From: Ancylonema sp.
Lineage: Eukaryota
Direction: 5' to 3'
DNA: 64,000 bases
Assembly: GCA_050230475.1 (NCBI GenBank)
Contig: JBFLGF010000128.1
Span: 1 to 64,000, forward strand
Every line of letters starts with the position of its first letter. Position 1 is the stretch's first letter. The notes beneath the pieces are model-generated. The model was given only the letters and a program-made list of their open reading frames with translations. It made no database searches and was not told the origin of the DNA. The position numbers and the translations under genes are program-made. Positions 5,137 to 63,714 of the stretch are shown here, one piece after another.

Positions 5137-5318
5137 GGTGCCAACGGCTTCACGTACCATTGTCCCGCATTCTCGAGTTCCCGCATTCTCGAATCGTCAC
5201 CGGAACGGAACCGGATCGGAACCGGATCGATAACCATCAGGAAAAAGGAAATGTCGAAGTTCCATAAAAACCTTCACATGCACCGCAATTCGGTTCCCAA
5301 ATGTGGCGTATAACATCA

Positions 5319-5685
<367 letters not shown>

Positions 5686-29981: not shown

Positions 29982-32934
29982 CTAGCCGATCTCAATCCCA
30001 ACTTGATTACCCAACCCACTCCCATCCTCAGATTTCCCACCACCACCTCCCAACCCCTCCTCTTTACTCCCCCCCAACCCCTCCGACCCCTTAGAGGAGA
30101 GTCCGCTTCCATTCCCATTCCCCAACTCCGCCCCCGCCCCCGCCCCCGCCCCCGCTTTCATGTCCTTCAACGTCTTCAGAGCCGCTAGCGTGCTCCGATA
30201 AATGGAGTTCACATGCCCTTTTCTCTTCCCCATCTCGTCCGACTCCTCCTCCTCCCCCTCCTCCTCCTCCTCTTCCTCGTCTTCCCCACACAAAGCATCC
30301 GAACTCTGAGCCGCTGACATGCTGTCCTCCGAAACTTCCTTCTGTAAGAACCAAGCACAACAAGAAAGGGGCGGTTACAGATAACCGCCTTGAGTAACCG
30401 TACGGGTTTCACTCAAGGCCGTTCCCTCAACAAATAGCCACATGAATAGAGTAAAACATGTCTTAACACATACTGTCGGTCCCAGGAACAAATATTAATT
30501 TCGACAGGTTATAAATTAACACGTCAGCTTCTGGGTGATATCCCAAAATCGGGCTGGAGATTTTCGATTGAATAAGAGAGGTTATTGATCAGCACTGTAT
30601 TAATTGATACAGGTTTCACCGTATCTCACCTCCACTACCCCAATGACCTCTAAAGAGAAAAGGGGGACTGACCTCTGCGTCTCTCCCAACCCTTTGCCGC
30701 TTCTTCTGCCCCCCCCCCCCTCCCATCCACAGCCGCCCCTACATGTTTTGCCACCCCTCCCCCTCCTCCCGACCGCACTTCCACCCCTAACTGCCCCCCC
30801 CCCCCCCCGCCGCCTCCCCCGCCCCTCGCCAGCCGCAGCATCCGCGGAGGCCTGCCCCTCTGATCCGGGGAAGGGGGGGGGGGGTAGGACCAGTTCCAGG
30901 ACCTTTTCGCACTGTGCAATGAGTTTGGTGAGCATGTCGGTAGTGGTGAAGGGCTGGTTAGAGACGGTGCGGATGAAGGGGGCGCGGAGGTTGGTCAGCA
31001 TGCGCTTGTCGTACTTCTTCAGAATCTTCAGCAGGCCTGGGGAGACGAGGGGCGGGTTCGGGTTCAGGTTTGGGTTCGGGTTCAGGTTCGAGTTCAGGTT
31101 CAGTGTCGGGTTCAGATTCAGGTTCAGGTCCCAACACTCTCTTTTGATAAACGGCATGGGCATGGGCATTTGGTTGTTGAAAATCGGTGTGCTTCATTAC
31201 TTATCATTATGCTGTTCTGCGTTTTGGGTTCGGGCGGATCACAATGCAGAAAAAAAAAAAACTCCCACGCTATCTGTCTCCAACTTTACCTCCAAAACAC
31301 GAACCTAGACCTTCACACCTCCCTCTCCCTCCTCCCTCCCTCCTCCCTCCTTCCCATTCTTACCTTCCACTGCCTCTACCCCTACCCCCACCCCCAATCG
31401 CCCGCTCCCCAACCCCCCCCCCTACCCCCCCCCCGGCAGTCCCCCCTCACCCATGAAGTTGAGTGATGAGTAGTTGAGCAGCAGCACCATCTCCCCGTGG
31501 AAGCCCACAATGTCCCGCCGCAGGGCCATGACCTCGGGGGGGCAGGCCGACCCCCAGAGCAACCTGCTGGGCTCACTCACGCAGCTCATGCGCTCCTTGA
31601 GGCACTGAGCGGACAGGGAGGGGGACAGGTGGACAGCCGGGGGAGGGGGGAGGGGGGAGGGGGGAAAGGGTGGGTACCTTCCTTGTTTTTGGAAGACGAG
31701 TAGCTGTGGTATCTATTCCAGGAACACGGGAGGTATCTCATAACCGTCACTCACACGGTTCACCAAACGCATGCAGCTGTGAGCCACACACTGACCCCCG
31801 AAGGAAAACAAATGTATCTCAGTGTAGATAAACAGCGGTCGGCTGAATAGTCATCAGCGGTCTTCTCAGACAGAAAAAATCCCTATACCCTTGAACCTAT
31901 AAATACCGGGCTTTGGAAAGAGACTGTAAGAGGAAGGCCGCACAGATATGCGAGGTGAAGGCGTCCAGGTTAGTTGACATGTGTATTTCTTCCGAACCAA
32001 AAGCAGGACAGACAGCTATACGCTTCGGCGCCAGGTACGCCCGACGACCGTTGTATCGAACAGGGCCAACCAGTACCACGTCCCGCTCAGCCTCCTCACC
32101 CTCTGGGGGAAAGTGGCACCTAGTCTACCCTCCCATTCACACTGTCGCTCTGTTTCAGTATTATAACGGTATTATATTCCAAACCGTACCTACGATGCTG
32201 ACACGGTCTGCGGTTACGGTTCCGGTATTAGTATCCATACTTAGAACTCAAAAAAAAAACCAGACCAGAGCTGTTGGGACTTTGCAAGCTACTGCCACCT
32301 GGCGCGGTCACACTGCCACCTGCACACCTACCTCCCATCCATCATATGCCGAGAGCTAGCTAGCTAGCTTGCCAGCTTGCCAGAATAATCGGTTGAAATA
32401 GCGAACATATCCCTCGGGATATCGACATCTTACCTCCAACTTTATCACGTAGTCCTCTACTTTCTCCATAAAAAACTCGTTGAACTTCTCCAGCTCGCCG
32501 TTTAATAACCGTATGAACTCCCTCTGCTCTTCTGCAGAAATATGCCTGCTACTCGCTCCCGCCCCACGCACTTCCTCCCTTCGAGCAGGAACCTTTCCGT
32601 CTAGTTTAACCCCACCGGTACCCAAGTCTTCGAGGCTATCATCGCTATCTTCCTCGGGAACTGCTTGCACCACATTCACCTTCCCTTCCGGCTCTGACGC
32701 TTTCATAACCGCCTCGCCCTGAATCCCGAGATTTGCGCCATTTCCTGTCCGACTATCCGGGTCAGTAGTGTTGGTAGCTGGATGTGAGCCAGGCTCCGCT
32801 TCGTGTGTGCCGTTGACAGGTGGCGCGGCCAGGGTCTTTAGCCTCTTCTTCAGCTCCTTGTACGACAAGAATTTATTGCGCCACTCTGGCAACGTGTCTT
32901 CGATTTGAACGCGGAGACGCTTTCCAAATTTCAT
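29982..32934 (-). CDS. SPX: SPX-domain-only protein (phosphate signalling); exons approx. 32934-32434, 31604-31451, 31036-~30673, ~30342-29982
   Basis: MKFGKRL...[74 protein letters not shown]...PFI...[10 protein letters not shown]-terminal [15 protein letters not shown]. Exon 3/4 boundaries are uncertain because of homopolymer runs. Confidence 0.93.
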
Positions 32935-33596
32935 GGCTGCAGTGCGTCTACGGTCTGGAGTGCGTTTACCGTATGAGGGTTCCCTCAAGCGCAATTTTTC
33001 AGCTGAGAAGAAGTATCGAATGCTCAAGATTGAAAAGCTGTGAAGACGGACTGGAAAGGTATCCTGGGCGAGGGATCGACGGATTCCACGTGGATTCTGC
33101 GAAGATTCTCTCAGAATAATTTCTGCGCCTTTCGACCTTTCAGTTGAACTTGCGGAGTGCGACTCTATTATTGCGGCGTACAAATTCGGCGCACTGAGGT
33201 ACTGATTTTTCGATTTCCTATGCACAACTGTGCAGCAAGATCCAACGGCGTGAGACCAATTCACAGCTGAATGCCACAAATGAACGGCTATGAGCGCCAA
33301 TCGGATATGTATGCACGTGGTATAGCCGTGGCCGTGGCCGTTAAAGTCACCAAAGATTCCTAAGTTCGTGGCTGTAATCTCTGATTGGGCGTCAAAATTA
33401 AATTGACAATTCAAAAATCAACAATCAGTGAGCGAATCCCTGCAGGCCACGATGGCTGACAAGCTCGTCGTCTTCCTTCAAATTCATGCCATCTATTATT
33501 GCTATTGATGGGGCGTTGACAGGGGGGGTTTAAAGGCTTTCGCCAACCCTCATATCAGCGCTCTTTTTCCCAGCTTCAGCACGAGAAGATCGTAGA

Positions 33597-33866: not shown

Positions 33867-36800
33867 ATGGCGCTAACAAGCTGTGCAATCACGTGGACCA
33901 ACTTTTCATTGCCAGGATTCCGTCTTCCGACCGCAGGCGGGAGGTGGAAACATCGCGATTCGGAGGCGTCTTGCGCGCCCCGTTCATCCCTTGGTAGTTC
34001 CCCAAATCAGATCAAGGGTTGGGAATCAGAATTTACTGGTAGCAGAAGGAGAACCGGGGGAGGCGGTGGAGGTGGGGGTTGGGGTAAGGGGCAAGGGGGT
34101 GGCGGGGGGCGGCGAAAGGGAGGATTTGCAGTAGCCATGGCGGTCGATTATTATACGACACTTGGAGTTGGCAAGAGCGCTTCGAAGCAGGAAATCAAAA
34201 GTGCCTACAGGAAGCTAGCTCGCCAGGTATCATTTATCGAGGGGCTCTAGGACCAATTTCGATTTCAAATCTCTCTATGCGCCTTCTGGAACTCGCTTTT
34301 GATGCATATAGAAATCAAGAGACTGAAACCTACCCACAGAAGCTTCCGACCACCTACTGAAAAGTCCCTCGCTTTGGTCCACGGCTCTGACATTCTGTTT
34401 CTTTTCGGTGGGGCTGTGTGGTTTTTGTGGCTTCTTTGGGGTTCCAGTACCATCCAGATGTGAATAAGGCGGCAGGAGCCGAAGACAAATTCAAGGAAAT
34501 CAGCAATGCCTATGAAGTAAGTCTGCTGCTCACGGGGAGAGGAGTGTGGGCGGAGGGGGTTGGTTAAGGAAGGTATTGGCACTACCTCGAGTTGGGGTTT
34601 AAAGATCTCGATACCAAATACATTCCCTACCCCTTCGTGGGGTTACAGTTGGGACCTCCTAGTAGTAGTGGATAGATAGAGCAGTAAGCTGCTGGATAGT
34701 GCAGAAATTCTAAGGGTTTAGTTGTTGCGAGTTCTGAAAGTTCTCGGTGTGAAGACGGGCAAGGGTAGAGGGGCTGGCTTGCAGTGAACCACATACCTTA
34801 AACCTCATACCTTCCCCCCATCCCACAAAGCGAATGTCAAGGAACCATTCACAAGGCCCACAGTTTACAGACAGAGTCCGGGGGTTAGGGAGTCCAGGGT
34901 CCGTTCCAGGGTTCACGGCCACTGGAATTTTTTTTGGAAAGGATACTGCCCTTCCACCAACCTGAACGTCGGAAACTTTAACCCCGTTGACGATTTACCG
35001 TAGGATTCACCGTTGTTAATAGTTCATATTATAGTGAATGTAATAGTTGATATTTAACGCCTCCCCAGCAGTCACTTCACCTGATTTTGACCGTGGTTCA
35101 GCTTCTGCTTCAGGTGTAGTTGAAGTTCACGTTCTTAGGTCCTCTTGGCCCTCTCCATCCAAACCTGAACCTTAACTTAAACCTAAACCTAGACCTAAAC
35201 CTAAATCGAACCCGAACCTGAAGCATCAACCCAAATCCAAACCTGAACCTAAACCTGAACCCGAAGCTACACCTAAAACCAAACCCGAACCAGAACCCGA
35301 CCCTACATCTGGCCTCGTTCCGGCGACATGAGTCACCTGTGTAATAAAATGAGGCAGCAAGTAGTGGTAAGTGATGTTGGAAGTGATGTAGGGCAATCAA
35401 TCCCCGCGAGTCGATCAGGATACACCTTCCTGTGAACCCTGAACCCTAAACCCTAAACCACGAACTCTTAACCCTGAACCCTGAACCCTAAACCCTGAAC
35501 CCCTAAACCCTGAACTCTAAAGTCGGGCGCAGGTTCTGTCCGACGACCAGAAGCGTCCTCTGTACGATCAGTACGGCGAGGCTGGGGTGAGGGCGGGCGG
35601 GGCAGGCATGGGAGGAGGAGGGGGACAGGCGTACGCGGTAAACAACCAACCATGGACAAAATCACTTCCAAGGCCCTGCCTGGTCACTCATGGGGGGCCG
35701 TGGAGGGGGGGTGCGGGTGGGGATGTGGTTGGAGTCTCAGACAAACCCCTTTGATCTTTTCGAGACCTTCTTCGGAGCGAGCGTGGGCGGCACAGGGACG
35801 AGAAGAGCAGGACCCGCAGTGGGGGAAGACATCAAGTGAGGAAACCCCTCCCCCTCATCAGGACCTCGCAATCAGCACCCCCTCTATCAACCCCAACCCC
35901 CGACCCATAATCCCCGACCCCCGACCCCCAACCCCCAACCCTCAACCCCTGACCCCGACCCCTACCCCGCCCCGTGTGCAGATACACTCTGTCTCTGGAT
36001 CTGGTGGAGGCTGTTTTCGGCGTGGATCGCAGTCTGGACATCTCCCACCTCGAGCAGTGCGGGGTGTGTGGGGGGAGTGGGGCCCGCGCCGGCACCCAGA
36101 GGAAGCAGTGCCCCACCTGCAGGGGGATGGGGCAGGTCATGGCGGCGAGGCAGACGCCGTTCGGGACCTTCTCACAGGTGGGGGGCTTTTCCTGGGTTTT
36201 TCTAATGGGTTTTTCTTGGGTTTTTTCTGGGTTTTTGGGTTATTTTCCCAAAACCCGAAAAAAAACCCGAAAAAACCCCAGAAAACCCAAGCAATCCTAA
36301 TCTTTAGTATCGAATGATTCATCTATACATTACACTGCATCTGAAAACACCTAGGTGACTACGAAAAGGCCCGGGCAATCAATTTCTCTTCGCCCAATAC
36401 TTCCTGAACCCAAACTTGGTCCCCTCAACGGCGTCTCCGCATCACCCTACAGTCACCCATTTTTTCCTCTCCAAAACCGTCCCTCCCCCCCCCCGCAGGT
36501 TACCACCTGTGTCCAGTGCAGCGGGGAGGGTGAGATTGTGAGCGAGTACAGTCGTAAGTGTGGAGGGGAGGGGAGGGTCCGCGTGAAGAAGCAGGTCTCG
36601 CTGCAAGTGCCGCCGGGAGTGAAGACGGGGAGCACGCTGAGATTGAGGGGGGATGGGGACGCGGGGTTGAGAGGGTGAGGGGGGGACGAGAAAGGGGTTG
36701 CGCAGTCGTCGACGGTTTGTATCTATCGGTCATTCGTTTGTTTGTTTGTTTGTTTGTTTGTTTGTTTGTTTGTTTGTTTGTTTGTTTGTTTGTTTGTTTG

Positions 36801-39687: not shown

Positions 39688-40639
39688 CTTTGACTTTGAC
39701 TTTGACTTTGACGTTGACTTTGATGAAATTCAACCAACGAGGCATCCAGTTGTGATGCAATTCTAAATTTTGACCGTTGACTTTTTTATTGCTGGTTTCT
39801 CACGTGACGTAGGATTAAAGTGTTCGTACCTTCTTACGGGCAACATTTAGTGAACGTGCTGTGTATGATTTTTCCACAATTCGACTAGAAGTCGCATTGG
39901 CCCGTGGTTGAAGTGGGTGTGCCTAGTTGAAAGCATTTGCTCCTATTTAGGAACTCTCAAGGTTGAGACATTAGGCATTCTTATGTTTGACCACCTAGTA
40001 ATCATTTGCTGCGTTTCAAATTGATTTCCGGAGCTAAGTGTTGACTTGGGAGATGGGAGGTCGTCCTCTACAAGTGCTTTGTTGTGACTGCTAAGTCGTT
40101 CAATCAATGTACTCAGCATCACGTTATCATTTATGATCTGTCAATCTGTCTCATTGAAGATATAATTGCAAGTAGGTATGATAGATAGTTGGTATTGATC
40201 CGATTGTGGAATTTCTCGGAAGCCGATCCGGATCGACCATATGTGGATTCGATCTGGGTCAGGCCCGATCCGGATCGGATCAGGGTCGGGGCCCTGCATA
40301 TTCAAAAACAACGAAATGAAAACACTAAGATACGACTAACGGTTGAATTCGTCTCTTCTCGTAGATAATACCTACTACGAAGTCCGTAATGAAGAACTCT
40401 TGCTCATAGAAGGTCTTCACCATAGTTGAGCCCGATCCGATTAGAGAATCTCCGATCCGGCACTGATCCGGATTGAATGTATCATACTGTGACCCGGTAA
40501 GCAAAATGACCCACCTCAAAACAACGCGCAATTTTTACTGCACCACTACCGTACTAATAATTATCCTGTGAACCCTGGGGGGGTAACTTTCGGCCGTCGT
40601 TTTCTTTCTGGTTTTTCCCGGATTTGTTTTTTCACTACA

Positions 40640-40970
40640 CCGTTCACTTTACCCTAAAACATCCGTTCATCCGTTTTCCTTTATCTCAAAATTATTCGCC
40701 GTTCGTCCGTTCACTTTACACTAAAAAATCCGTTCACTTTCCTTTACCTCAATTTAGGCGCCGTTCATCCGTTCACTGTACACCAAAAAATCCATTCGCT
40801 TGCCTTTATCTCAACTTTATTTGCCGTTCCTCTGTTCACTTTCGTTCAAAAAATCCGTTCATTTTCCCTGATGTCAACTTTTTTCGCCGTTCATCCGTTT
40901 ACTCTACACAGATACATCCGTTCAGTTTCATTTTTCTCAAGTTTATTTGCCGTTCATTCATTCACTCTTG
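40640..40970. repeat. Tandem array of a ~63-bp unit rich in CCGTTCA
   Basis: Unit starts near 40698, 40761, 40823, 40886 and 40949. Confidence 0.85.
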
Positions 40971-42569
40971 TTCAAAAGCCTTATGTCAGTGCGGTGCGTT
41001 GTCAACTCTAGATTGCGGTTCTGCAGATTGCGTTCTATAAAATGGCAGACGTGAACACAGTCTCTGAGTTCACAATCGTATCGCTAGACTTTGTCGCTGA
41101 TCGTCATGAGAAAAGGCCCGTTAGACAAATATATCATGAGAGACCCCGAAGAGATAAAGGCGAATGCTTTGAAAGTAGTAATACGTGAACAAAAGGCAGA
41201 TGCCGAATATAAGTTGGAGTATGATGCTAGGAAATGAGCTACGGCTGCTCGAAATCGAAATCCATTGTAAGGAGGAGGAGAAGGAAGCCAAGAAACGCAA
41301 GGGGAAGGAGAGGGTGGACGAGGTGAGGATGGGTGAGGAGGAGATGGAGGGGGGGGGGGGGGGTAGGGCGGGGAACACGATTTACACGTCTGGTTTATGG
41401 ATCCAGAGGGGGAAGAGGGCGACGAGGACGAGAAGGATGAAGTGAAAGAGTAGTGAAGAGTAGATAGTGGTATAATATGAGTAGTACGTAGTGAATAGTG
41501 AGTAGTAAGTGAAAGTGTGGAGATGTCCGCATACTTTCGGTTTTTCGGATTTTACTTACTTTTCGGGTTTTTGAAAGGTATATTGTGGTTTAAATTGTTT
41601 GGAAACTCTGTGTTGTTTATCATGTTGGCTTGTGCATGGTGCAAAAATTTAAGAAAAATGTACACCTTATTTAATCGCCGACATGTCGACTTCCCCCCCC
41701 CCTAAATTTATGAAAATAAAATCAATGACATTTGATTATGCTGCTACCGGACCACTATTGAACCTTGGGCGACATGGATCCAACCACATATGTGTGATGA
41801 GCAAAATATCGATTATGAGCGATTCTATGAAATTGACCCACAACGCCGGATGTCGGTATTGATGGCGTGACCCAACCAAAAAATGAATTATTTAATTCGA
41901 CCCGACCCACCCTTTCCATAATTATTTGCGGGTCATTATGCATGGCCATTACGGTAGTTGGGCGCGTACATGTGCGCGGGTTTGGCGCAAATGTTCGGAA
42001 GATGTGCGCATCGTGCACCTCTTAGCGTATTCCAAATTCGAATTTTTGACTAGGTTAAAAGCCACCGCTCATAGTAGGTATTTTAAGTCTTTTTATCCAA
42101 AAAAAAAAACATAGTTGGGCGTGCACGTGTGCGCGGGGTTGAGCGCACATGTTCCGAACATGTTTGGAACTAGTGCGCGCCCAACAATGATTGACAGGCC
42201 TCACCTTGTTTTTTTTTTTTTCTAGTGGGGCCAATCCGGATCGGGGAAAGTGGGATCCTTGATCTGGGAAAGATTCAACTCTGGTAAACTTTGACCAAGA
42301 TATTTAAAACAACTCCACGTGGAGCTAATTCCCTTTGGATTCAATTGCCAACAATTCTAACATTTTGGACGCGATCCGGTTGTAAATATGGCATAAGCGC
42401 GGTTTCGACCTCGTAGTTACAACATACATCATACGCATGAGGTATTTTTGGGTTTTTTTTGGGGGTTTTTTTTTGCCGTATGTTAATAAGAGGGAGCCAA
42501 TATAAAATCGAAACTTTACCGAAGTTAGAGTACGAGTAAGTCTTTGTTCGTCATAACACGTCAAGCTTA

Positions 42570-46400: not shown

Positions 46401-49400
46401 ATTTAGTACGATTAAAATAAGATTTAACATGATAGTGCATCCTGTGTTTTTTCCGCAAGTTCCATTTCTGAATGTTCGGTGGTTGCGCCATCATGTTTGC
46501 AGGCCCCCCACAACAATGTTTTATTCACATCAGCTTCTTTCAAAAAAAGGTATACTTGGTCAGATATGGTGAGTGCTTCCAGTCCGAGAGGTCCCAGAGT
46601 GACCAGATGTCGATGAAAATCATATATTTATACATTTTTTTGGCAGCATCATTTACTAGTAGAGCATTATTTTGCAAGATTGCCGCTACGATGCAAGCGA
46701 AAATAAATCGGAGGAAGACGGAGCAGATTGACATCAGTGACATGTGGTAAATTTACCATCAGTTGACCATGCCACGATACTTCCTATCAACTTAGGCAGG
46801 CAGGATTATTCTATGTTGACCTCGATTTGACGATTCGCTGGATTTTACAGCCAACGATACATCGACAAATCTGTGTGTATGAAGCATGCACTAAACTAGT
46901 TGCTTACGGTTTTCGAATTTTGGACAGTGAACACATTCTACAGACACAAATTCCACTTGCGCTGCTACTTTCGGGGATTCTTATGGGTGAGCACTTTTGA
47001 TTCGCGCACGGATATTAGAAAATGTATTTTGGCTGCTGGCAACATGATTTGCCAACGTGCAGGAGGGCTGGTCGTGATATACGCCATAAAAGTTTCGTTG
47101 CTCTACGAGGACTACAACGAATTTCTTGTAAGTATGTACAACTTTGAGTTTACATATTATTGCACGCCTTGGTAGCTTGGAACCGTACATGGGTTCTCAA
47201 TTGAGCCCTTCGGCTGAATGCATGTGAAAATTAAGGTTGTCGCAAGAGTGCGCGAGATAGACCAAACTAATCTACCTCGTGGAAAGCGACATGCCAGGTT
47301 TGCAAAATATTTATAATTACATTGATGGAATTCGGTAGCATAGGTTTGTATAGAAACCGGACACTCCTGGTTGATTGGAGATTACAGATTGGAGTCGATT
47401 ACCATTAACTACGTGGGAGGAAATCTAGTTGAAGACCTCGAGCGACATTTGTTTGAGCCGAGTACTCCGGAGAAGCGAAGAAAAAAGCAAGTAGGTGCAC
47501 ACATTGTTATTCCAATAAATCATTATTTTTATCCCTTAGAAGTAACTACTATCAAAGTTGCATTCCATGTCTTGTTTCTATCTCTCGTCGGCTGTTTACT
47601 CACGATTATTCGTGGTTTTGATGGTGATGCAGACCGAAACATTCTTTCGAATGCCGGGTAAAGGCGAAGGTGAAGATGATCTCGACGAGATCCAGCCACC
47701 CCGGGCAATGGTGGCCAGCATCACCTTGGAGGATCCACTTCCGGATTTTGGAGGGTGATACCTCATATTTGCAGGCCTGGGATTACATACAGTTTACTCG
47801 TTTGATATATCATCGGAGGTGTTTTGGTGTTGTTTTCTATTTAAAAATGGTTGACCCGATTGCAGGGGATCTTTCCCGAAAACTTCAATTGCACCCTCGG
47901 ATGGTATGATGGGTATGGTAACATGCAGTCCCCGATAACTTTTATAGTTCGATACATCAAAAATTGATGTCCATATACTACCATTTCTGTTTATTCTACA
48001 TCTGACGGAAGAGACGGGACCCACTCAAGTTGCACATCCACATGACTCCACCGATAACACCTCGGCCAATCACCTACAGTAAGTGTGGAAAATGTTTTTA
48101 TATGTGTTTGGAGCATACATGCGATGCTTGCATTGATTTGGCGCTTAGTTCGCGCCGAATGTAAATCTGGTTATTAGTGATGTGATCATTCATAATGATG
48201 ATGATGATATAAAGGACGTGGATGACGAATTTTCGTATTTTCATGAGAGAGGGTCACCCTTTGTCATCCTTTCTTCAAATACAATTTCTGATAACGTGTT
48301 TTTCACTTCTCCTTCTAGTTTTCTCCGCGAGCAGTATTGACGTGCCAGATGGAGTCGGCAGACAGCCTCTTGACGAAATCTCTCAAAAACAAATAAATCG
48401 ACAGATTTTGGAAAAATCTGCAAAACTTGACTTTTTATATTTTTTTGCGTCGATGAAAATGACGGATGTTGGTCGATGACTTGGCTGCTTGTCTGGATGA
48501 GCAGCATCAGGATTGGGCCTTTGGTCAATATCTGGATCTCACTAGAGTAGATTGGTGTAGGTCGAATCCTTATTGACCACACAAGAATGTAATTCAGGCA
48601 CGGTATGTGACTTATCAACGAAGTTTGCTGTAGCTACCTACTACTCGCCGAAAGCTGAGATGCACTCAACGCTTAGTGGTGGGAGGTCTAGAAACAACAC
48701 TAAGGTTAATCACGCGTTGCAGGTTATCGTACTTCACAACAGGTGACAGCTACAAATAAAGAGAACGCAAGGCAAATAGCTATAGAATTTCTACAAGGGT
48801 GCAGAATGACTGATAGTTGGTTGCGACGGGGTGCGCACTCACTATAGGAATCAAACGTTGTCATGAATAAAACGATTCACTAGATCTGAACGGGTGCAGG
48901 CAAATTCAAAGGGTGAATTGTCTGACTGAGCTCGCACAAAACGGTGCAGCTAATTGTAACGATTTCTCACGTCAGCAAAACGGCTGACAATCAACGACTT
49001 GCAAGGGTCACGATTTTGCAAGGGTAACGATAATCTGACTACGGCAGAATTTCACACGATGCGTATGCAAAACGGCACACGTCTTTTTGTACTACTTGAG
49101 ATGCGACAGCACGCACAAGCAAACATGCAATTTCGCATAACTTACGGCTGGATGGAGCGACGCGAAGTTTGCAAAAATTCACAGAGAATATCAAAGGCGA
49201 AACGGCACACTTGATAACGATTGTTGACGATTTCAGAATACACGAATTCAAGATGGCGATTGCAAAGAGTTGTTGAAATTCAGACAACGTAAAAACTGAC
49301 AGCGGCTGACAGCGGTAGCTGGCAGTTCAGAAAGCAACTTAGGCTTTAGTACAATCGACGCGCCGTTTCACACGCGCGGTAATCTAGATCTTATCTTGAT

Positions 49401-50744
49401 CTATGGTAGAAAAAAAATATCGACTAGACAGCCAATCGTGACTGTCTATTCTAGAGTTCTAGATTTAACACGTGCGGCGGTTCAAACGCCAGGCTGGCTG
49501 ACTGAGATAAAGCTCGGCGCGCACTGGGAATCTACTCGTCGATACGAAAAAATACTCCGAATTAAAATCTAAAAAGTGGTACACCGACTTTTCTAGATTG
49601 ATTGAGTATATAAAAAAAAAAAAACAAACGTCTGACTGATTGAAACTCATATAACGACAGAGTTCAATACAAATACTAAAAATCGACAATTACCAAAATT
49701 GCTATTTTTCAAGCGTATCGACAATTAAAAAGACTTTACTTTCTAACGATCTCTAACGGCATGACAGCTGACGTGCTAGACGGAGTCGGCAAACAGCGTG
49801 TCGACGAAATCTCTCAAAAACAAAGTAATCGACAGATTTTGGAAAAATCTACAAACTATTTTTTTTATCATTTTCTGCGTCGATGAAAATGACGGATGTC
49901 GGTTGATGACTTGACTGATTGTCTGGATGAGGAGCATCAGGATTGGGCCTTTGGTCATCATCTGGATCTCACTCCCCCCCCCCAACTACGAAAGCTCTGC
50001 GTCGGAGGCTGGGACACATGGACATCATTTGATGTGGAGCAAGGTTAGGATGTATTGCAGAATGCCGGATTTCTTGTTGTTCACTGTCGAGACATAGGTT
50101 TTCTCAAACGCAGTGCACACACGGCGAGTTTGGTTAGGAAGTCCGAATTGCATTGGTTTCTAGTCGTAGGCATGATGAGAGGTGCCTGAGTCATACTATA
50201 GTTGGATGGCATGCAAGGGTGAAGGAAATTGTTATGAAAGAAACTGTGGGTTGGTGAGGTGTGGTGAGACAGCAGGGGTTGACATAGGGTCAGGATCTAC
50301 TGTGGTTACTCGCCAAGGTGTACGCCGTGAGGTTTCTTCAGAGAGAGGTGGTGAGTGACAAATCAAATGTGGAACTTCTGCCAAAAAAATCAAAATTTCT
50401 TTTTCTGTTTGAAGTAACGTGGTTGCATTTGCAGCGAGGGACTATGTTTGAGTGATGGCTGTATGAGAGCAAGGGTAAATAGTGGTCGAAGACGTCGATG
50501 TTTGGGGTGAACTAGATACGGAGGAAAATGCACTGGTGGTTTTCCAAGGTTCGTCATTAACAGGTGGTGGAATTGCCAATGGCGCAAGGAGAACTGATCG
50601 TACGGGTTTCTTCTTTTTGTTTGGTTGCTTGGGTTTCACATGCATTGGTTGGCTGACAAGATGCATTGTAACTTTGGTGGAGTTGGCCCTCTGCCTCAAC
50701 AAGGATGGTGGGGAATACCTGAGAGTTGAGGTGAGGCGCTATCC

Positions 50745-52278
50745 CTATGGGTTGTAGGTTGCCATGATGATGGATGCTAGCCAGTGGGTGACGTGACGAT
50801 CGAGGGACAAACCAAGGGTGCTGCGACGCTGAGCAGCGGTGCGGATCATTCCCACTGATCCTGCGGTGGCTCCCGGGGTGCATGGCGCGTTCCAGATCAT
50901 AGGGTGAGGGTGTAATGTAGGTGCCAGATTGTTGTTCATACACCATGCCCTCGCCTGGGTGACCGGTGGCCGGATCAATGGTGAAGTCAAAGCTGTCGGG
51001 GTATGGGGTGATAGGCGGGAATGCACGTCGGGGTTGCCCAACAATGTTCACAATCGGGGGTTGCACATCACTGGCAAGCACTGGTGTCGGGAAATGGCCT
51101 CGTTCTAAAATGTATGCAAGTTGACATCCAATGGTTTCACCAAGCAAGCAAGCCTCGAGAAGGCGGGTTGGCATGTGGTTCTACCACACAAGGGTTGATC
51201 GGCGGTTGTTGGAGTTGACCACGGTTGCCTCGATGACGGCTGAGTGTCTAAGGAAAGTGGTAACCAAAGGGTACATCTCTGCTACCCAGGGTGGTGAATC
51301 CAAAAACCGGTAGGTGAAAAGAATGTAACGAGGAGGGTGATCCTGAATGTTTGAGAGGTTTTGCAAAACCTTGAGCAGCGCCAGGAAAGGGTACACACGG
51401 TGATCGAAACCCCCCCTAAGTGGACGAAAAGTGACCTCCGTTTCCCTGTTCCAATTCCCCCCCACAATGTCGATTTGGCCTCGCTCGTTGAGGAGGTGCC
51501 GGAAGGCAGGTTCTGCCGTTTCCTCGATGATGTTGCTCCCCAAACGACTGCAACAACCTGCGAGTGCGTTGTCGGGGAGTTGTCCGGAGAATTTTCGTTG
51601 AGCTTTTTGCAAGGCGAAGTACACGGCTTGTTCGTCCGCCTTGCTCTCCACCTGCGTCGTGTAAGTCCCCACAAAGTCGCCGCATTCCAAGTGGAGGTAG
51701 AGGATGCTAATGTTGGATCCCCCAAATGGTCCGTAGATGTGCACGCCTTTGCTGAGGATGGACGGGTGAAGGGGTGCGATGCCGGCTGGCATGGGTTTTT
51801 CTCCTTGAAACTTGCGTCCGCTCCAATGAAGCTTGGGTGGAGAAAGGGTGAAGTCCTGCATGATCTTGTGGTTTCCCAAACGCAACAATCGTTGACCCAT
51901 GATGAGTTGCTCCTCGCGGATGGTGGCGACAACATTCACGCTACGGGGTGTGTAGATTCTCCGAGTGTCCTCGGCTAGTTGCTGGGGTGAAAATGTTGCA
52001 GGCAATACCCGTTGGGTGATGAGGTAAGGATATCCAGGCACGATGAGATGCTGATCTCTGGGGTTCCAGAATGGACACTTCTGACGGTAGCGAGCCCGAT
52101 GCCTGGCGAGGTCGTCACCATCACGGGAGTCACGCAAGTTGTCGTAGTCACGGAGTGCCAAATGGCGTTGTGCAGCCGTCGCCATAGCGTTGACTGCTGC
52201 CTGGTCTTGGGCAAACTGGGTTGCATTGTGCTGTGGGGAAGGGATGGGAAGGAGAGGGAGTACTGAAGTTTGTGCCAC
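50745..52278 (-). pseudogene. Retrotransposon-borne C5 cytosine methyltransferase-like domain with catalytic motifs lost; in-frame stop at 51181-51183 and a frameshift near 50878
   Basis: Collinear with DNMT domains of streptophyte gypsy elements as I recall them: GVHIYGPFGG (motif I), GQLPDNALAGCCSRL, IDIVGGNWNRE (motif IV position, no PC), PPRYILFTY (motif VI position, no ENV), EATVVNSNNRRSTLVW*N (motif VIII), VNIVGQPRRAFP...GEGMVYE, PSPYDLERAM (motif IX), AAQRRSTLGLSLD (motif X). Confidence 0.72.
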
Positions 52279-52309
52279 TCATGAGACCCACGACACTCCG
52301 GCGATCTAC

Positions 52310-54070
52310 ATGGCGCGCAAGAAGCAGTTTGCGCATCCTCCTGGCTCCAACCGTCAAGGACTTCGGAGTCAGCATACTACACCGACAGCAACAAAGGACG
52401 AGTGCGTCTTCAATGACGACGACGTCACTGTGGTTCCCACCGTCGATCCTACACCACTCCCTCCGGTGGATCCTTCAGCACCTGATCACATGGAGTTGAC
52501 CATTCCAGCACCCTTGGTCACCACCATTGCTGCACCCCTGTCACCACCTCCTGGCGCGGGACCCAACTTCATTACCCCGGTGTCATCTCTAGCACCTCGT
52601 TTCTCACCCTTGACTTCACCTATCTCGGAGTACAATGGACCACCTCGCTCTACCCTTAGTCGAGAGTTCGATTCATACTTTCGAGACACTCCCTAGAAAC
52701 CACGTTCATCGACAGGTAAACATTGCACGGCAAATCGTACCACCTCAGTGAAACACGGATATTCACCACAGACTTTGAGTGCAGGTCGTTCTCTTCGCTC
52801 ACCCGTGTTCCCGACATCACCATTGCATGCGGCGATAGCATCCTCACAACCAAAGGGTAAGTAATCATCCAAATGCATTCCTTTGCAATAAACCATCGAT
52901 GACACGATAATGGCACCATTTGCAGAAATTGCTGCACCTCCCACTGCATCGATGCAACCACCTTCGCCACCCGTTACCACCACACCATCGACAGTCGGAG
53001 GTACACATTTACCACCCGTCGATGAATCGCAAACAAGGCCAGCACCAATGTACATGTACTTATCTGCTAATGTCGAGGCAAATTCGGTACCCCGCGACAC
53101 GGTGCGATCGAAATTTGAGGAGGGACCATTACAAGCACCCTTGTCATCTCAGAACCTTGGCAAAGGACAGCAGACAAACCATCGACAAGAGCAGCTGTAA
53201 CTTGACCTGCTTAACCTCATGGCATTGGCTGACCACCTCCACATAGATCGATACGTCGACACCATGCTGCAATAGTTCAACCCAGACATCCAGCTCACCC
53301 CGATTGAGCAACTCTACATCATCCTCACCCGTCCATTTCATGAGCCTCACCACGTGACCCCGCCATCGATCGAAGCCATTCGGACTCAGGCTACCTCGGA
53401 TCGAGTGAAGAGGGAGAAAGTGGACAAAGATAAGCTCACCGCTAAACTTCGTGCTTTACTTCGGCAAGAGTGGGAAGCAGAACGGGAAGCCGATCGCATG
53501 CAAGCTGCCGAAGACACTACGGCAGTGGACGAACCAACGGTCGACAACGTGGACGCAGAGTTGCTAGCGGGCCGTCAACGCGAAATCGACAACCTGGCTG
53601 ACGATATGCAACAAGCCAACCACACCATCTTCAACCAGGGTGCAGCATTGCGGGCAAAGGGAGATGCCATCGCAGTCTACCAAGCGGAGAAGAAGAAGGG
53701 CAAAGAAAAATCGGACCCTGTCGTGAAGCTGGAACTTTCGGACTCTGACTCCGACGACAACATGAAGAATGTTCCACCTCCGGTATACAAGCATCAAACC
53801 ACGGTCACCATCGGAGAGCGCAAACCAGTCCGGAGTCCACGCGCGGAGTTGCAGCGTCCTATACATCGACAAAGGACGACTCCCCCTCAGCCCAAACTCC
53901 ACCGACGCCCCAGCCCATTCCAGTGTACCAGACTGTTCCTCGGCGTCCCCCGCCATCGACACTCCCCACGGAACGCTTGCCAAACAATGTCCTCCCCTCC
54001 GGAAGTCTGGTCGATACATGTATGTTTCGGTCCACGAATCAGGATATCCTCCCATCGGGCAAATAAATGA
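52310..54070 (+). pseudogene. Antisense ORF inside the retroelement: Pro/Thr/Ser-rich N-half plus predicted coiled-coil region; probably two 69-nt introns
   Basis: ORFs 52190-52696, 52910-53200 and 53354-54070 share one frame. It is broken only by TAG/TAA at 52694, 53198 and 53273, and by two TAA inside a GTAAGT...TTTGCAG segment (52857-52925). Starts MARKKQFA. Confidence 0.6.
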
Positions 54071-56162
54071 GTTGCCAAGGATGATGTCGAACTCCGTCGA
54101 TGGTGACAGATGGAGGTGAAGATGCACAGTGCAAGGGTGAGCAGTGCCTTCCCCAACGGTGATGGGAATCTTCTCCTTGGTACTCCCCAAACTCGTCTCT
54201 ATCTTTCCTGACGCCGTGATATATGGTGCTCCGGGGTGCAGGTCAGCGGGTGAGAGTTAAAGGAGTTTGGTGAGGTTGGCGCCAATCATGGTTTCTTTGG
54301 CACCAGTGTCTAATACATTCTCCACGGGTTTCACATCGCCTACGAGGAGAACACCTCGTCGGCTAGGCAACATGGTGATGCCGTAATGCTTCGCCAGCCG
54401 GTTGTGGTGAGCAGGTAGACGGGCTGAAATATGAAAGAAGACGGGGTTGGTGGTACGGGCGTTTGCAGGGTCTTGCATGAAGTGCACCTGATCGGCTGCC
54501 TCCTGGAGTGCTGACTCCGTTCCCTAAACCATGGCGCGTTGTTGCATCAAAATTTCATGAAGACGATCATGGTGAATCTGAGCTTTAGCCAAGGGTAAGG
54601 GTGGTGGCACATCTGAATCATTCATGTGCTGCAGACTGGTAGTACCTGGTTCCACTTGCAAAGGAAAATGTGGTTCGAAAGAATCAGGCATTTTGGTGTT
54701 GTATCCCTGTCGTCGACCCATAGTCTTCTCCTTCTCTAGCAACGGTTTCCAACAATGTTTCAGAGTGAGGAGTGGGGTACTCCCTCGTTCTGACTGAGCA
54801 TCTTGGTAAATTGGAGTGTCTCGTTCTCTAGTGGGTGAAGGAGACCGTTCCTTAGTCTGCTGTTCTTCACCGTCACTAGGTGAGCCCTGGTTTGCCGAAT
54901 GCATAGGTGTGCTGACATCGACAACGACTCTAGCACTCTTTTTCCTTCGTGCCTTTCTCTGTCCTTCGTTGTCTACAATGGCTGCAACTCTGGGTGAGCG
55001 ACGTGGTGCCATCATATAATGAGCTGGGAGATCAGGGAAAGTACCTTGTGTGTCTCACTAGGGGTGAGATTGGTGTTTTCTTTCGCCTTGGTTTCTCAAG
55101 GTAGGCCAGAGATGAGGTGATGGGACGATGCATGTACGAAGTTGGTGGCTCACGGCTATTCCACTCGGTTATGGTTGCACCTGCACGGGGTGAAGCATCA
55201 ACATGAATGGTGAGATTTTGACTGGCTCGCTTGGCTTTCTTGCATTGTGCAACGGTGTGGTTAACCTCCCCACAGTGTGAGTAGTGAGCCCCTTGTATGT
55301 AGTCACACTCTCCGTATTGCCGTGTCCGTGGTAACTTCTTTTGATTCTCTGGTGACTGTCCGTAATTGCCACCCTTAAATGGTACCATGCCGTAGCTGAC
55401 GATGGTGAAGGGTTAGGGCGTGTCGACGAAAATGGTGAATTTGTCACCGGTTTATCTTTCCGGGGTGAGGGTTATTTTCTAGAGTAGTGTCCCTGCTGGT
55501 GACAGTTGTAACACTCAATCGGCTTGTCAGGTCGAGATCGCGGGAGATCTCCGGAAAAACTGACGTGACGCAGGGAAGTGGATGGAGTCCCTTGGTTAAG
55601 CTTGAGCGCGCCAAATGTCGACGGGAGCTGAGGTCCCACCTCTGTTGCTGCTCGATACTCAGAGCCAACTTTGGTGAGGGTGAGTTCAAACCTATCAGCT
55701 TTAAACATGAGATCCTTGACGGAGATAGGTGGTGTCGGCGTCGTCTCATATAATTTCTTCTCGGTTTCCTGGATATACCAAAATCCAAGTAGAGGCGAAA
55801 TTGAGTTTTGCAGAATTGAGTGAGTTCTCTAGGTTCAGGTCGAGGAAGAGGCGTTGGTCGAACCATAGGTGTGGCTAGGAATCTTCCTTGTGTTCTCCAA
55901 CAGTACATTACAGAGTTCTTCTCACGATGGGTGTCACGAGCTGTCATAAGGGTTACGTCACCAAGATTGTCTTTTCTAAATTTCATCCAGACATCATGTG
56001 CAATACCCATGGTGAACCTGCATACTCGATGGTGTCCCACTGAACATGCCCGTTCCGTTCGTTAGAAGTTTTGTATATAAAATACGACCACAAAGCATCC
56101 ACAAATTCTTCCTGTTTGTCACGGACCTCGCCAGAATACAAATGTACTTTTTGTTCAGACAT
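53564..56162 (-). pseudogene. Degenerate gag + aspartic protease of the retroelement
   Basis: Gag-like start MSEQKVHLYSG. Knuckle-like CYNCHQQGHYSR (~55480-55515) and YSHCGEVNHTVAQC (~55245-55285). Protease VLDTGAKETMIG (~54310) followed by ITASG and FDIILGNSF. Stops and frameshifts present. Confidence 0.82.
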
Positions 56163-59100
56163 GTCGTCGATACTATCGTCAAAAATACTTTCCGAGGTGA
56201 CAATAAAGGGTATTGTCGGAACCACAACAACGGGTGTTGTGCCTGTCATAACCTCTGCTGAAGGTCCACCTAGTTGAAGAACAGGTTCTTCGTCAAATAG
56301 AATGATTGGTAAGATTGTTTCGAGGTGACGGAGGTTGTTGTCTGACTCTGAATGTTCTAAATTCGCCAGAGTAGAATTCAAATGACTGTCGGGTGAAACC
56401 TTGATCGAACGGTTGGATTGGTCTCTTGTCCACTGCATACACTAGAATGCCAAAATCTAGTACGCCGGTGAGATAATCCATAATTTGTTTCTTTGGTTGC
56501 GGTCGATTTGAATCGACAATAACTACTATGCCAGTATTCGTATGGTATATGTCCAAAGCCAGGGTGCTGAGAATAACCAAGGGTGACAGGTCACGGGGTC
56601 GGTTTTTTTTTTTTCCTGGTTTCGTACCTGTCGAAAACTGCAGACCTCGATGCGAAGAAGCTCTTCCGCTGGCCAGTTTAGAGTAGATTGGTGTGGGTTG
56701 AATCCCTACTGACCACACAAGAATGTAATTCAAGCACGGTATGTGACTTATCAACGAAGTTTGCTATAGCTACTACTCGCCGAAAGCTGAGATGCACTCA
56801 ACGCTTAGTGGTGGGAGGTCTAGAAACAACACTAAGGTTAATCAGGCGTTGGAGGTTATCGTACTTCACAACAGGTGCAGCTACGAGTAAAGAGAACGCA
56901 AGGCAAATAGCTATAGAATTTATACAAGGGTGCAGAATGAATGATAGTTGGTTGCGACGGGATGCGCACTCACTATTGGTTTCAGGAATCAAACGTTGTC
57001 CGTGAATAAAACGATTCACTAGATCTGGAACGGGTGCAGGCAATTCAAAGGGTGAATTGTCTGACTGAGCTCGCACAAAACGGTGCAGCTAATTGTAACG
57101 ATTTCTCACGTCAGCAAAACGGCTGACAATCAACGACTTGCAAGGGTCACGATTTTGCAAGGGTAACGATAATTCTGACCACGGGAGAATTTCACACGAT
57201 GCGTATGCAAAACGGCACACGACTTTTTATACTACTTGAGATGCGACAGCACGCACAAGCAAACAGGCAATTTCGCAGAACTTACGGCTGGATGGTGCGA
57301 CGCGAAGTTTGCTGAAATTCACAGGGAATATCAAAGGCGAAACGGCACACTTGATAACGATTGTTGACGATTGCAGAATACACGAATTCACAGAGATTTC
57401 AAAGATGGCGATTGCAAAAAGTTGTTGAAATTCAGACAGCGTAAACTGAGAGCGGAAGGTGGCAGTTCAGAAAGCGACTTAGGCTTTAGTACAATCGACG
57501 CGCCGTTTCACACGCGCGGAACTAGATCTTATCTTGTCTATGGTAGAAAAACAAATATCGACTAGACAGCTAATCGTGACTGTCTATTCTAGAGTTCTAT
57601 ATTTAACACGTGCGGCGGTTCAAGCCAGGCTGGCTGACTGAGATAAAGCTCGGCGCAGTCTGGGAATCTACTCGTCGATACGAAAAAATACTCCGAATTA
57701 AAATCTAAAAAGTGGTACACCGACTTTTCTAGATTGATTGAGTATATAAAAAAAAAAAAACAAACGTCTGACTGATTGAAACTCATATAACGACAGAGTT
57801 CAATACAAAGACTAAAAATCGACAATTACCAAAATTGCTATTTTTCAAGCGGATCGACAATTAAAAAGACTTTACTTTCTAACGATCTCTAACGGCATGA
57901 CAGTATGACACCGAGCAAGTGGAGGCGCTGTCCATGGAAAACCTTTCAGGAGGCCTTGCGAGGTGGCGAGCGGCGAAAGTATTTTTTCAGATCTTCGGTA
58001 CATTCGCAATACTTTCATCCCAACTTTTAGATATTTAAATATTGAGATTTGATTTCTGGATTTCTTCGCAGCTGCAATATGAAGTATCGATGTAAGTAGA
58101 AATTGGTGGCGAAATGAGTCCGAAACATTGACAACGATGTGGTGTGGTTATCTTTTATCCTCGTGTACGCACTTTTGGCATCCAACCGCTATTTATCTGC
58201 AAGATCATTCAAAGATCATGCTATTTAACCAGCCAGCCACTCCGTACGGGGACATCAAGATCATGCATGGCCAATATCGTTGAGATTATTTGAATTACAG
58301 CATCGCACAATTCTTATTCAATGTGACGTATAAGGAGCCCTCTATTCCCTTAATCGAGTAGAGACTTTGCTATTCTTTGCACGTGTGCAAAGGGCCACAT
58401 TTTTTTTGTTTTTGTTTTGTTTATATATTTTAGTTTTCATTTTTTATTTCAAGGATTTCCTCATCACGTTGGCACCACCTAGTCGTCCAGGACAATGAAG
58501 TTTATTTAAGTAGATTATTTGGTGTTGCGGCCTGTATTGTTGCCTTGAGACACATATGATTTGGATCAGAAACACTCGAATGGCTGGAGGTAGGAGGACA
58601 CAAGTACAACGGCCAATCGTTAGATAGTGAACAATCAGATAGAATGATGGCGCAAGAAGGCTCTTCCTGGTATCACAAGAAAATTTGGAGCACAAGGACA
58701 CATGTTCAGGTGGATAGAAACCAAAAATTGATATGCAAGTGCTGACATCAGTACTTTTTGAGAAGTTGGATCACGACATGATTGTCCTCATTGAAATAAT
58801 TTCACCGACATTTGAGAACATAATGTGGGATGACCACATTTCAATCCGTCATATGTGCCAACTTTTATGTGGCATTTGAGAAGAATGGTGGACCACAACT
58901 GAATATAGACAAAGTTGTATGGGGCAATGGAGTCGAGAAAAGTTAGATATAGTGGTCCCTGGATATAACGACCCTCTTTAGAAGGACAAACTCGGTATAA
59001 CGACAATTTTTTTGAGTTTTTTTATAATCAATATGAAATCGCCCGCGCTATAAGCATAACGACACTCTATACAAAGACAAATTATTTGAGAAATTGTTAC

Positions 59101-60116: not shown

Positions 60117-61874
60117 TAGGGCAGTGAAGTTGGAGGCATATTAAAGTTCGTATACCAATACTACATATATCAGGAGACTAATAGCAATTGTCGTTGAGCG
60201 AGATAACATACGACAACTCACATGTATTTTAGCTCTTGCTATCAACATGTTGGATACAACAGTACACCCATGCACATGTCTGCTCAATACCCATCTGCTA
60301 CGACAGTATGCGTACGAACTTTACTGGTGTAGAAACTCAAGGGCCCGAACTTTAACTCATAAATAGTCTAATATCTAAGAGTTTGAACTTCAAACTTTGA
60401 AGTAGCAATGTCTTTGAAGTAGTCCGCCTGTCGCCCGCTTCATGTGATTTTGGAATCTATGATCGGAAGCCGATCTGGATTTGATCCGGGTCAGGCTGGA
60501 TCCGGATCGGATCAGGGTCGGGGCCCCGCATATTCACAAACCACGAAATGAAAACAATTATATGAAACGTTGAATCCGTCTCTTCTCGTAGATAATACCT
60601 ACTACGAAGTCCGTAATGGTGAACTCTTACTCTTAAAAGAAGGTCGTCACCATCGTTGTGCCTGATCCGATTAGAGAATCTCCGATCGGGCAGTGATCCG
60701 GATCGGCTCCGGTATTGATCCGATTCGGATCGGGGCGCCGATTAATTGGTGAAACTGGATGAAAATAAAGCTTCATGTGCACCAATCGTTTCGCAAAACC
60801 CCAAATAAAGTCAGATCGGGGGTCGTCCGTAATGACCAGAATCGACAGTTTGTTCGAGATCGCGATTTACAATAAATGATATACACCACCGGTGCGTGCT
60901 GGTTCCAAAGAAGTATTGGCAGGCCTCGCCTCGTTCTTTTCATTTGTTTATAGTGGGGCCGATCCGGATCGGGGCAGGAGGGATCCGGGATTGGGATCAG
61001 GACCAACTATGGTATGTTTTGACCAAGAGATTTAGAACAACTCACCTTGAAGCAAATTCCCTAAGGATTCAATTGTCAACAATTAGAGAATTTCGGACGC
61101 AGTCCGGAAACAACCGGATCCGCTTTAGGGTTGTAAATTTGACGTAACCTCGGTCTCGACCTTAACTACAACATACATACACATGAGGTAAATATAATTG
61201 TACCGTTCACACCCCAATGGTTGTGTGTATGACGTAATATAAAGTTTGACCCCGCAATTACAACTCAATGACAACGTTAGTTGTGCCATACATTTTAGTT
61301 GCAAATATATTGTTCAACACTCAATCACAGGGGCATTTGGCTAGACACCGAAAACATATTCGAAACCTTTGATTGCCAATTTATGGTATTTAGAGAAGAG
61401 TACATGTTCCCCCCCCCCCTCTTCTAAGCTGGCTGTGAACGGCCGCAAAATTTCCGTACACATTCTGGATCCATCCGTTATGAGTTTTGATGTCAAATCA
61501 CGACCCAGATATGCCTTCAAGTGATACAAAACTAGTGAATGTGTTACAACAACAACACACAACAAGATCGATATCAATCCCACGCACGCATATGCGTGAA
61601 ACACACCCACCCCCTACCGCCTACAAGTAACAAACCACACACTCCCGAGAATCACACAAAATAGAAATTAGAGCCTCATCCGACCTACTCTTGATGTATC
61701 AAAACTCACACCCACTCTCGCTCATGTTCCGGGCTTGGCGGAAGGACGATTGGTCAACCAATTAAACCGAAGAAAAATGTAGCCCCAAATGAGAAGCTCC
61801 CCCCCTGCGCTACACGTTTGTACAAGAAGCAACAAGGGGGCCACGTCCTCCTTCCATGTATTTGTGTGTACATC

Positions 61875-63714
61875 CTAACTGCCACGTGCGGCAATGAGAG
61901 TTTCGACCACGGAAGGGTCTGCGAGCGTGCTGATATCGCCTGCACCCACAAGCCGCCCCCAAAACACAAATAGTTTGGTATTCATTTCATTCATGCGATG
62001 ACCTTCACCCCCGAGGCGGAGTTGTTCGGAGGCACTCTATGTTTACGGACAACCCCGTCATGGTGCAGTTCCTTACAAATTTTTTTTTTTTTTTTTTTTT
62101 TTTTGGTTGCGTCACTTTTGTCTCACAAAGTCAGTACTTCGCAATCGTCCATTCGTCTCAATGCGTCACCGGAAGGCGTCCAAGCAACCGATCACAAACC
62201 CGTTTCCCGCGAAGTAACGACTATCATTTAAACAAGATATCCGTACTCACAAACGAAAAGCAAACGGCTCGAAGAGTAAACTTTTGGCCATGCAAGCAGG
62301 GAAGGAGTGAGGAGTGGGCACGCACCAAGTGCATCATCTTCCCCCGCAGCAATCTTCCTCAAAATTCGCCGCATGATTTTGCCCGACCGCTGCCGCCCCA
62401 TCCCCACCACATCAGCACCCCCCCTCCCCCCTCAGGAACCTTAAGCACTTCAAAATGGCACCCTATACATGAGGGAATTGCGCCCTATGCATGAGGCAAT
62501 TGCGCCGCATCCCCCTCATTTGAACCCCCCTACTCCTCACTCCCCGTACCGTTTTGGGCACCCCTGGCGCCCAATGAATCACGTCCGGCGTGGCAAACGC
62601 GCCGATGTGGTGGCGGACGGACGACTTGAGACTGGAACGAAGGGCCTCAGAACCCTCCACTCTGCAACCAACCATCCATTCCTCTCATGACACTCTGTAC
62701 TCGATACTCAATAATTCATACCTAATACTTAATACTCAATACTTCATACCTAACACTTAATACTCAATACTTCATACCTAATCCTTTATACTCGATACTC
62801 GATACTCAATAATTCATACGTAATACTTCATACTCGATACTCAATACTCAATACTTCATACTTCATCCTTCATGCTTCATACTTGTATTAAGTAGGTCTG
62901 AAGAGTTCCGACCCCCCCTCACCCTTCCATGAGCGTGACAAAGGCGTAGATGCCTTCCCCCTTGATGCTGTGACTAAACCCAACCACGGCAGCCTGATAC
63001 CAACCCCCCCCCTCCCCCCCCCCCATCCCCCCCACACCTCCTCACTCCAGTCACACACACCCTCCCACTCGCCCCCCTCCCAGGGCCCCACCCCCGCCCA
63101 CCTCAGCGCACGCCTCATGGGTGACCAACGCACTCTCAACCTCGGCAGTGCCGATACGATGACCACTAATCCCCCACCCCTCCCCACCCCACCCCACCCC
63201 ACCACCCCCTAACCGCGCAGTTGGGTTCCCTACCATCCGGGTACCGACTTTCTAGCGCACGGCGATAGATGGGATGGGAGGGGAGGGGAGTGGGTACCTG
63301 ACGTTGATGACGTCATCCACCCGGCCTGTTAGCCAATAGAACCCGTCCTCGTCCCTCCGACATCCGTCCCCACTCATGTAGAGGCCGCGGAAGGGAGAGA
63401 AGTAGACGGACTCGAAACGACCGTGGTCTCCTGCCACCGTGCGGAAGCAGCTGGGCCAGGGGCGCTTTATGGCCAAGTAGCCGCTACAGGGACCCTGCGC
63501 ACCAAAGGACAGACCACAACATAACTCTCACAACCTCATCATCATCACTATCAACCTCACCATGACCATCATCCTCCTCATCCTCCTTATCGTCTTTTCT
63601 GTCCTCACCTCCATCTCCTTCCCCTGTTCGTCCAGCACGACGGGGTCCACCCCGAAGAAGGGCAACATGGCGCAACCGGGCTTCAGGGGAACAGCGCCGG
63701 GGAGGGGACTGATC
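61875..63714 (-). CDS. ACS: Acetyl-CoA synthetase, 3' part (continues beyond window); exons approx. 63714-63610, 63495-63298, 63165-63102, 62993-62922, 62662-62550, 62388-62326, 61938-61875
   Basis: [32 protein letters not shown]...GDHGRF...[99 protein letters not shown]. Confidence 0.96.
62700..62886. repeat. Degenerate 7-bp tandem repeat (ATACTCA/ATACTTC) in an ACS intron
   Basis: Directly visible. Confidence 0.85.

Follow-up and report, generated by a model that had tools for sequence, protein, structure and literature searches.

Known systems closest to the locus

TR-GAG and LARD-type elements are non-autonomous long terminal repeat (LTR) retroelements in which Gag is kept and Pol has been lost, and which are presumed to be mobilised in trans. 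DNMT3L is a catalytically dead paralogue, encoded by a host gene, with demonstrable homology to DNMT3. Retroelements carrying active DNA methyltransferases (DNMTs) are already known and raise the question of transposon manipulation of host silencing. KnitGypsy-Dnmt3 of Klebsormidium nitens has a complete Gypsy Pol that includes a Pfam-recognisable Dnmt3 domain, its key residues conserved, and purifying selection acts on the DNMT domains of these elements (de Mendoza et al. 2018, PMC5890265). The subject of this analysis is a reading frame on the minus strand of a 64,000-nucleotide stretch of Ancylonema sp. DNA (the window; positions 1 to 64,000 of contig JBFLGF010000128.1, assembly GCA_050230475.1). 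The frame is carried by an LTR retroelement, and a sequence-only reading had taken it for a catalytically dead relative of the C5 DNA methyltransferases (C5-MTases). The interpretation that we favour, with about even confidence, is that the locus is a broken copy of an accessory frame of ~510 codons in a high-copy LTR element with Gag and retropepsin and no detectable reverse transcriptase (RT), and that the product of the frame, for which no relationship to DNMTs can be demonstrated, is a non-enzymatic protein specific to the family and maintained by purifying selection.

Each of these systems matches the locus in part. The window element shares LTRs, a Gag-like frame, the absence of RT or integrase, a high copy number and a presumed mobilisation in trans with TR-GAG and LARD-type elements, but its family keeps a retropepsin and ~1,000 further codons, which include the selected 510-codon frame. 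If a derivation from Dnmt3 is right, the frame would resemble DNMT3L in that selection maintains a methyltransferase-like fold from which the catalytic residues are absent; unlike DNMT3L, it belongs to a mobile element, and its homology to DNMT3 is not demonstrable. KnitGypsy-Dnmt3 is likewise a many-copy LTR element in which additional coding sequence follows the protease, in a host to which the streptophyte alga-like host of the window is comparable, and with purifying selection, which is shown here in the stretch tested. In contrast to KnitGypsy-Dnmt3, the window family has no DNMT profile match and has neither Pro-Cys nor ENV in any copy seen, and the window element has no RT, RNase H or integrase.

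The accessory frame and its intact copies

The frame and the features within it are as follows.

50745..52278, minus strand: accessory reading frame of ~510 codons, broken in the window copy by one TAG and one 5-base gap
51184..52278, minus strand: open part of 365 codons; the strings taken for DNMT motifs I-VIII lie within residues ~163-365
51442..51459, minus strand: GNWNRE (residues 274-279), the proposed motif IV without Pro-Cys
51321..51447, minus strand: 43-codon stretch with a synonymous excess, between proposed motifs IV and VI
51310..51318, minus strand: FTY (residues 321-323), the proposed motif VI without ENV; FTH in most copies
51181..51183, minus strand: private TAG stop; Q in another copy (P0009, STLVWQNHMP)
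50879..50882, minus strand: site of the private 5-base gap (frameshift), where the coding strand of other copies has GGCTT

The sequence-only reading had described about 500 codons with a single stop and a single frameshift, and this is borne out. Past the TAG at 51183-51181 the same frame extends to 50557. The gap lies at ~50880: contigs from public sequencing runs have AAGCC inserted behind 50880, and loose ends at 50880/50881 match. After the shift, the frame 50879-50748 terminates at a stop at 50747-50745, the left end originally proposed for the frame. Another copy, P0009, reads ..DLERAMGFTPGATAG.. / ..YDLERAMGFTPGATAG.. across the frameshift site, with MGFTPG there. The TAG and the 5-base gap are private to the window copy, and since other copies are open at both breaks, intact copies have ~510 codons. 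In a further copy, P0008, the frame stays open further upstream.

The family is abundant. When contig pieces from four public runs of three studies were aligned on 2,001 bases at a likeness of at least 80%, 2688 were obtained from run X1, 981 from X2, 298 from X3 and 15 from X5. Nine protein fragments of other copies are 67-97% identical to the window frame.

The residues at the proposed catalytic motifs were followed in these copies. GNWNRE (51459-51442) and FTY (51318-51310) are present as quoted in the sequence-only reading. P0006 has GGNWKRE where the window has GGNWNRE, and among the variants listed (40 of 46, from the four runs) none falls in the G-G-N-W codons. At 51312 an A>G change, with 61270.9 of 61530 depth in X1, gives FTH instead of FTY, neither of which is ENV; among the variants listed, nearly all contigs are FTH at proposed motif VI. 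At proposed motif I, other copies have EPFGGSD where the window has PFGGSN. The GGNWKRE of P0006 and the FTH contigs indicate that the odd motif residues are older than the decay of the window copy, as had been proposed.

Selection on the frame

Of the 34 minor variants listed for 51321-51447, 22 are synonymous, compared with an expectation of 24% among possible single changes (binomial p 6e-07). Transitions alone give the same direction (19/26 synonymous, 36% expected, p 1e-04). The variants fall at codon positions 1, 2 and 3 in the ratio 10/4/20, and in the other two minus frames only 9 and 4 of them are synonymous. The excess over expectation means that the protein is under purifying selection, as the sequence-only reading had supposed. 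The near-fixed differences private to the window copy, 21 non-synonymous and 12 synonymous, are close to neutral decay. The accessory protein is thus real and constrained.

A 207-codon open frame lies antisense to the accessory frame (51355-51975, plus strand). It matches no family and is not favoured by the variant pattern (9/34 synonymous); it is probably a by-product of the composition of the coding strand of the accessory frame, which is rich in C and A.

The retroelement carrying the frame

The surrounding features, all but one of which are coded or oriented on the minus strand, are listed from the 5' repeat to the 3' LTR.

56679..57911, minus strand: 5' LTR-like direct repeat, without the first ~200 bases that are present in the 3' copy
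56663..56675, minus strand: primer-binding-site-like TGGCCAGCGGAAG, TGG-initiated, 3 bases past the end of the 5' repeat, read from the sequence alone
55475..55828, minus strand: Gag-like frame with a visible CCHC zinc knuckle, CYNCHQQGH (CX2CX4HX4C)
53970..54523, minus strand: retropepsin (DTG .. ILGNSF) with one internal stop
52277..53966, coding on the plus strand: inverted internal segment with Pro-rich and coiled-coil-like frames
49972..49983, minus strand: polypurine-tract-like GGGGGGGGGGAG, adjoining the 3' LTR upstream, likewise read from the sequence
48543..49971, minus strand: 3' LTR, beginning TGAGATCC directly after the purine tract

The direct repeats (48543-49775 and 56679-57911) lie ~8.1 kb apart and are 96.1% identical (1163/1210 aligned bases). 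With its stop read as X, the retropepsin matches Asp_protease_2 (E 5e-07, 30.8 bits, Pfam cut-off 24.3) and gag-asp_proteas (28.4 bits, cut-off 28.2); the zf-CCHC match of the Gag-like frame (E 0.013, 16 bits) is under the Pfam cut-off of 20.8. None of the 86 frames of at least 45 amino acids in 49974-56678 matched RT, RNase H or integrase at E<=0.05. Among the features of a Ty3/gypsy-like LTR retrotransposon, the long direct repeats and purine tract and the zinc-knuckle Gag and retropepsin are therefore present in the window, and RT, RNase H and integrase were not found.

A ~200-base piece, TGAGATCC...GCACGTCA, stands at the start of the 3' LTR (49769-49973) and is repeated after that LTR (48338-48543); the two pieces are 88.8% identical, and none stands ahead of the 5' repeat. 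The arrangement suggests an LTR truncated at its 5' end and the start of a further LTR, as in tandem or recombined elements.

The 1.7-kb segment 52277-53966 is inverted in the window copy relative to the copies in the runs. GC and AT skew flip across it, the loose ends of other copies at 52273/52276 map, reverse-complemented, to 53937-53996, and P0008 joins the two sides of the segment in one frame; the breakpoints fall at 52273-52276 and 53965-53969. In junction reads of other copies the neighbours are identical, only uninverted. The plus-strand Pro-rich and coiled-coil-like frames of the segment match no family. With the inversion undone, the original order on the coding strand was Gag, protease, ~1.7 kb of Pro-rich and coiled-coil-like coding sequence, accessory frame, purine tract and LTR. 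In intact copies the accessory protein would be translated downstream of Gag-protease, likely within the polyprotein of the element, because in one other copy the frame continues upstream through the junction without a stop. The protein may act in the element's own propagation, for example as a nucleic-acid- or chromatin-binding module or as an adaptor, and an autonomous element would provide RT and integrase in trans.

Search for a DNMT or any other family

The sequence-only reading had described the frame as collinear with C5-MTase motifs I to X. At E<=10, no Pfam family matched the 365-residue and 207-residue pieces of the window, six of the nine fragments of other copies or the read-through tail P0010, and Pfam scans at E<=0.05-0.1 gave neither PF00145 nor any other family for the accessory frame, which has no match in NCBIfam either. 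Seven sequence searches of the PDB at E<=10, with the single sequence, fragments, two family profiles and the read-through tail as queries, returned only unrelated rows of 11.8-13.4 bits, although the PDB includes DNMT chains. The ESM Atlas gave no usable match to the whole frame or to residues 160-365. In a collection of 5.8 billion proteins, no homologue of near or longer length (200-2000 amino acids) was found; all nine matches there are short fragments of the element's own repeat family. The window frame had no match in the JGI metagenomes, and none was found in viral contigs. A JGI search with the fragment P0002 gave three loci, all of them a chance match of 31 residues on the strand opposite a bacterial acyl-CoA-synthetase-like gene, and these were rejected.

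A control hidden Markov model (HMM) was built from 31 bacterial DNMT genes (Dcm and 30 PF00145 loci) and run with all filters off. The 365-residue frame was not reported by it, fragments scored -2.9 to -3.7 bits or were not reported, and the 348-residue read-through, with X at both breaks, scored -3.8 bits, a value equalled or exceeded by 761 of 3000 shuffles. Alignment of the sequence or of the family alignment to the 31-DNMT alignment with hhalign gave a probability of 0.13-0.18%. Pro-Cys and ENV are each present in 31/31 control DNMTs and in neither the window nor the other copies seen. The controls have 54 columns conserved in 27 or more of the 31 sequences, and the frame keeps a minority of them, roughly a dozen by eye in the alignment first proposed. 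Proposed motif I, PFGGSN, fits the control LF.G.GG at the F and one G and does not fit at two G. Collinearity beyond chance is thus not supported. Absence of a profile or structural match had been named in advance as refuting C5-MTase homology, and by this measure the homology is refuted on the profile side, where every test was negative. Of the idea of a non-enzymatic protein of DNMT origin kept by selection on the retroelement, the selected, non-enzymatic protein is supported by the variant pattern and by the motif residues of other copies, and the DNMT origin has no support from the profile tests.

Three further leads came to nothing. A Pro-Cys hidden by frameshifts at the G-runs that flank motif IV was sought, and the other frames read IGTGKRRSLFVHL and LEQGNGGHFSST followed by a stop, with no PC. 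A Foldseek search of the PDB, from a low-confidence model based on a 6-row alignment, gave nothing at E<=0.001 and no DNMT, which says little for a model of this quality; its list is noise, with trigger factor at rank 1 (E 0.066) and a bacterial 'methyltransferase domain' chain at rank 21 (E 0.31, 87 columns), to which we give no weight. A block-by-block comparison by eye with the Dnmt3 catalytic domain was suggestive, but the total did not reach significance in an informal, approximate BLOSUM tally.

Weighing the explanations

Several points count against our favoured reading of a family-specific selected protein. The selection test spans 43 codons only, and its counts are variant sites in short contigs rather than independent events. 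The antisense register that shares third positions is 19/34 synonymous, although it differs from the frame of the open antisense reading frame. The negative results on homology carry less weight than they seem to: the DNMT profile is bacterial only, the filters of HMMER hide weak matches in library scans, and the copy in the window has decayed. The AlphaFold2 models are of low confidence, with a mean predicted local distance difference test score of 39.3 from the single sequence and 35.0 from the 6-row alignment, so that the protein may yet have a methyltransferase fold. The lack of RT is that of the window copy and of junction reads, rather than of a full-length intact copy.

The alternative that survives best is that the frame is a Dnmt3-derived domain in which Pro-Cys, ENV and other catalytic residues were lost before amplification of the family, so that the product would be a non-catalytic pseudo-methyltransferase, for example a DNA binder or, like DNMT3L, a decoy or partner for host methyltransferases. 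We regard it as possible but unlikely. By eye, weak strings stand in a fitting order (PFGG, QVE, DIVGG, HFF..LL, P..YILF, NNRR and then LERAMGF in P0009, the last of which we take to resemble the Dnmt3-type motif IX, ER..GFP). The residues at both catalytic motifs are common to other copies and lie in the stretch under selection, and a Rossmann-like fold would accommodate the strand-helix order of the low-confidence models. DNMT3 domains in Klebsormidium LTR retrotransposons have been published, but those elements keep the key residues and sit in a complete Pol (PMC5890265). Against the derivation stand the absence of profile, pairwise or fold evidence and the small share of conserved DNMT columns kept. 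The string order, the helix-strand order of the models, the Klebsormidium precedent, the bacterial-only profile and the decay of the copy are the reasons for keeping a dead Dnmt3 derivative as a minority reading. The more specific proposal, that this is a hugely amplified, pol-less Gag-protease element of a streptophyte alga whose selected Dnmt3-derived domain, stripped of catalytic residues, serves as a DNMT3L-like decoy or partner that tampers with host methylation-based silencing, is itself unlikely. A literature search for such elements in zygnematophytes, or for inactive retrotransposon DNMTs, found nothing relevant among the results listed.

The frame could instead be a piece that the LTR element captured from a host gene, or from some other mobile element whose family is unknown, and that is carried along under some constraint. 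The internal region is a patchwork of Pro-rich frames, coiled-coil-like frames and an inverted segment, and no family can be assigned. The synonymous excess among copies is an argument that the protein serves a need of the element itself, and the 5.8-billion-protein collection contains no cellular homologue in the length range searched, so that we consider a capture improbable. It is very improbable that the frame is open by chance, in retroelement DNA of biased composition, and encodes nothing: the C- and A-rich coding strand, the open antisense frame and a low protein language model 'recognition' value (1714) would suit this reading, but the frame is open over ~510 codons in other copies, the synonymous excess is frame-specific and comes with a third-position bias, and amino-acid identity is retained across diverged copies.

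If a selected, dead DNMT derivative were confirmed, it would represent a new strategy, in which interference takes the place of methylation. Even without a link to DNMTs, the loss of the polymerase genes from a very abundant LTR element that keeps ~510 codons of an unrecognisable protein under selection is unusual, and the element offers a clean case of an accessory transposon gene with a testable function. The case also shows that 'dead enzyme' readings of motifs by eye escape refutation unless profiles and shuffles are used.

Surroundings of the element in the window

The whole retroelement lies between direct repeats at 40241-40473 and 60473-60703, which are 20.2 kb apart and 88-92% alike; these could be the LTRs of a larger element in which the retroelement is nested, or a segmental duplication. 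A decayed Copia-type element occupies 205-3866 (plus strand), with Pol_BBD, SH3_retrovirus and two RVT_2 pieces in different frames and a Gly-rich low-complexity insert at ~1700-2000. Pieces of host genes are a ubiquitin C-terminal hydrolase (7550-8416, minus strand; Peptidase_C12, E 1.3e-41), an SPX domain protein (32359-33417, minus strand), DnaJ exons (33867-36675, plus strand) and a NIF-phosphatase-like exon (17474-17806, plus strand); the hydrolase, SPX and DnaJ genes have introns. By these gene pieces the host is a eukaryote of the plant lineage. A (TG/CA)n-type microsatellite of ~700 bases lies at 5200-5930, and tandem arrays are found at 62664-62898 (14-base unit, ~17 copies) and 40697-40977 (63-base unit, 4 copies).
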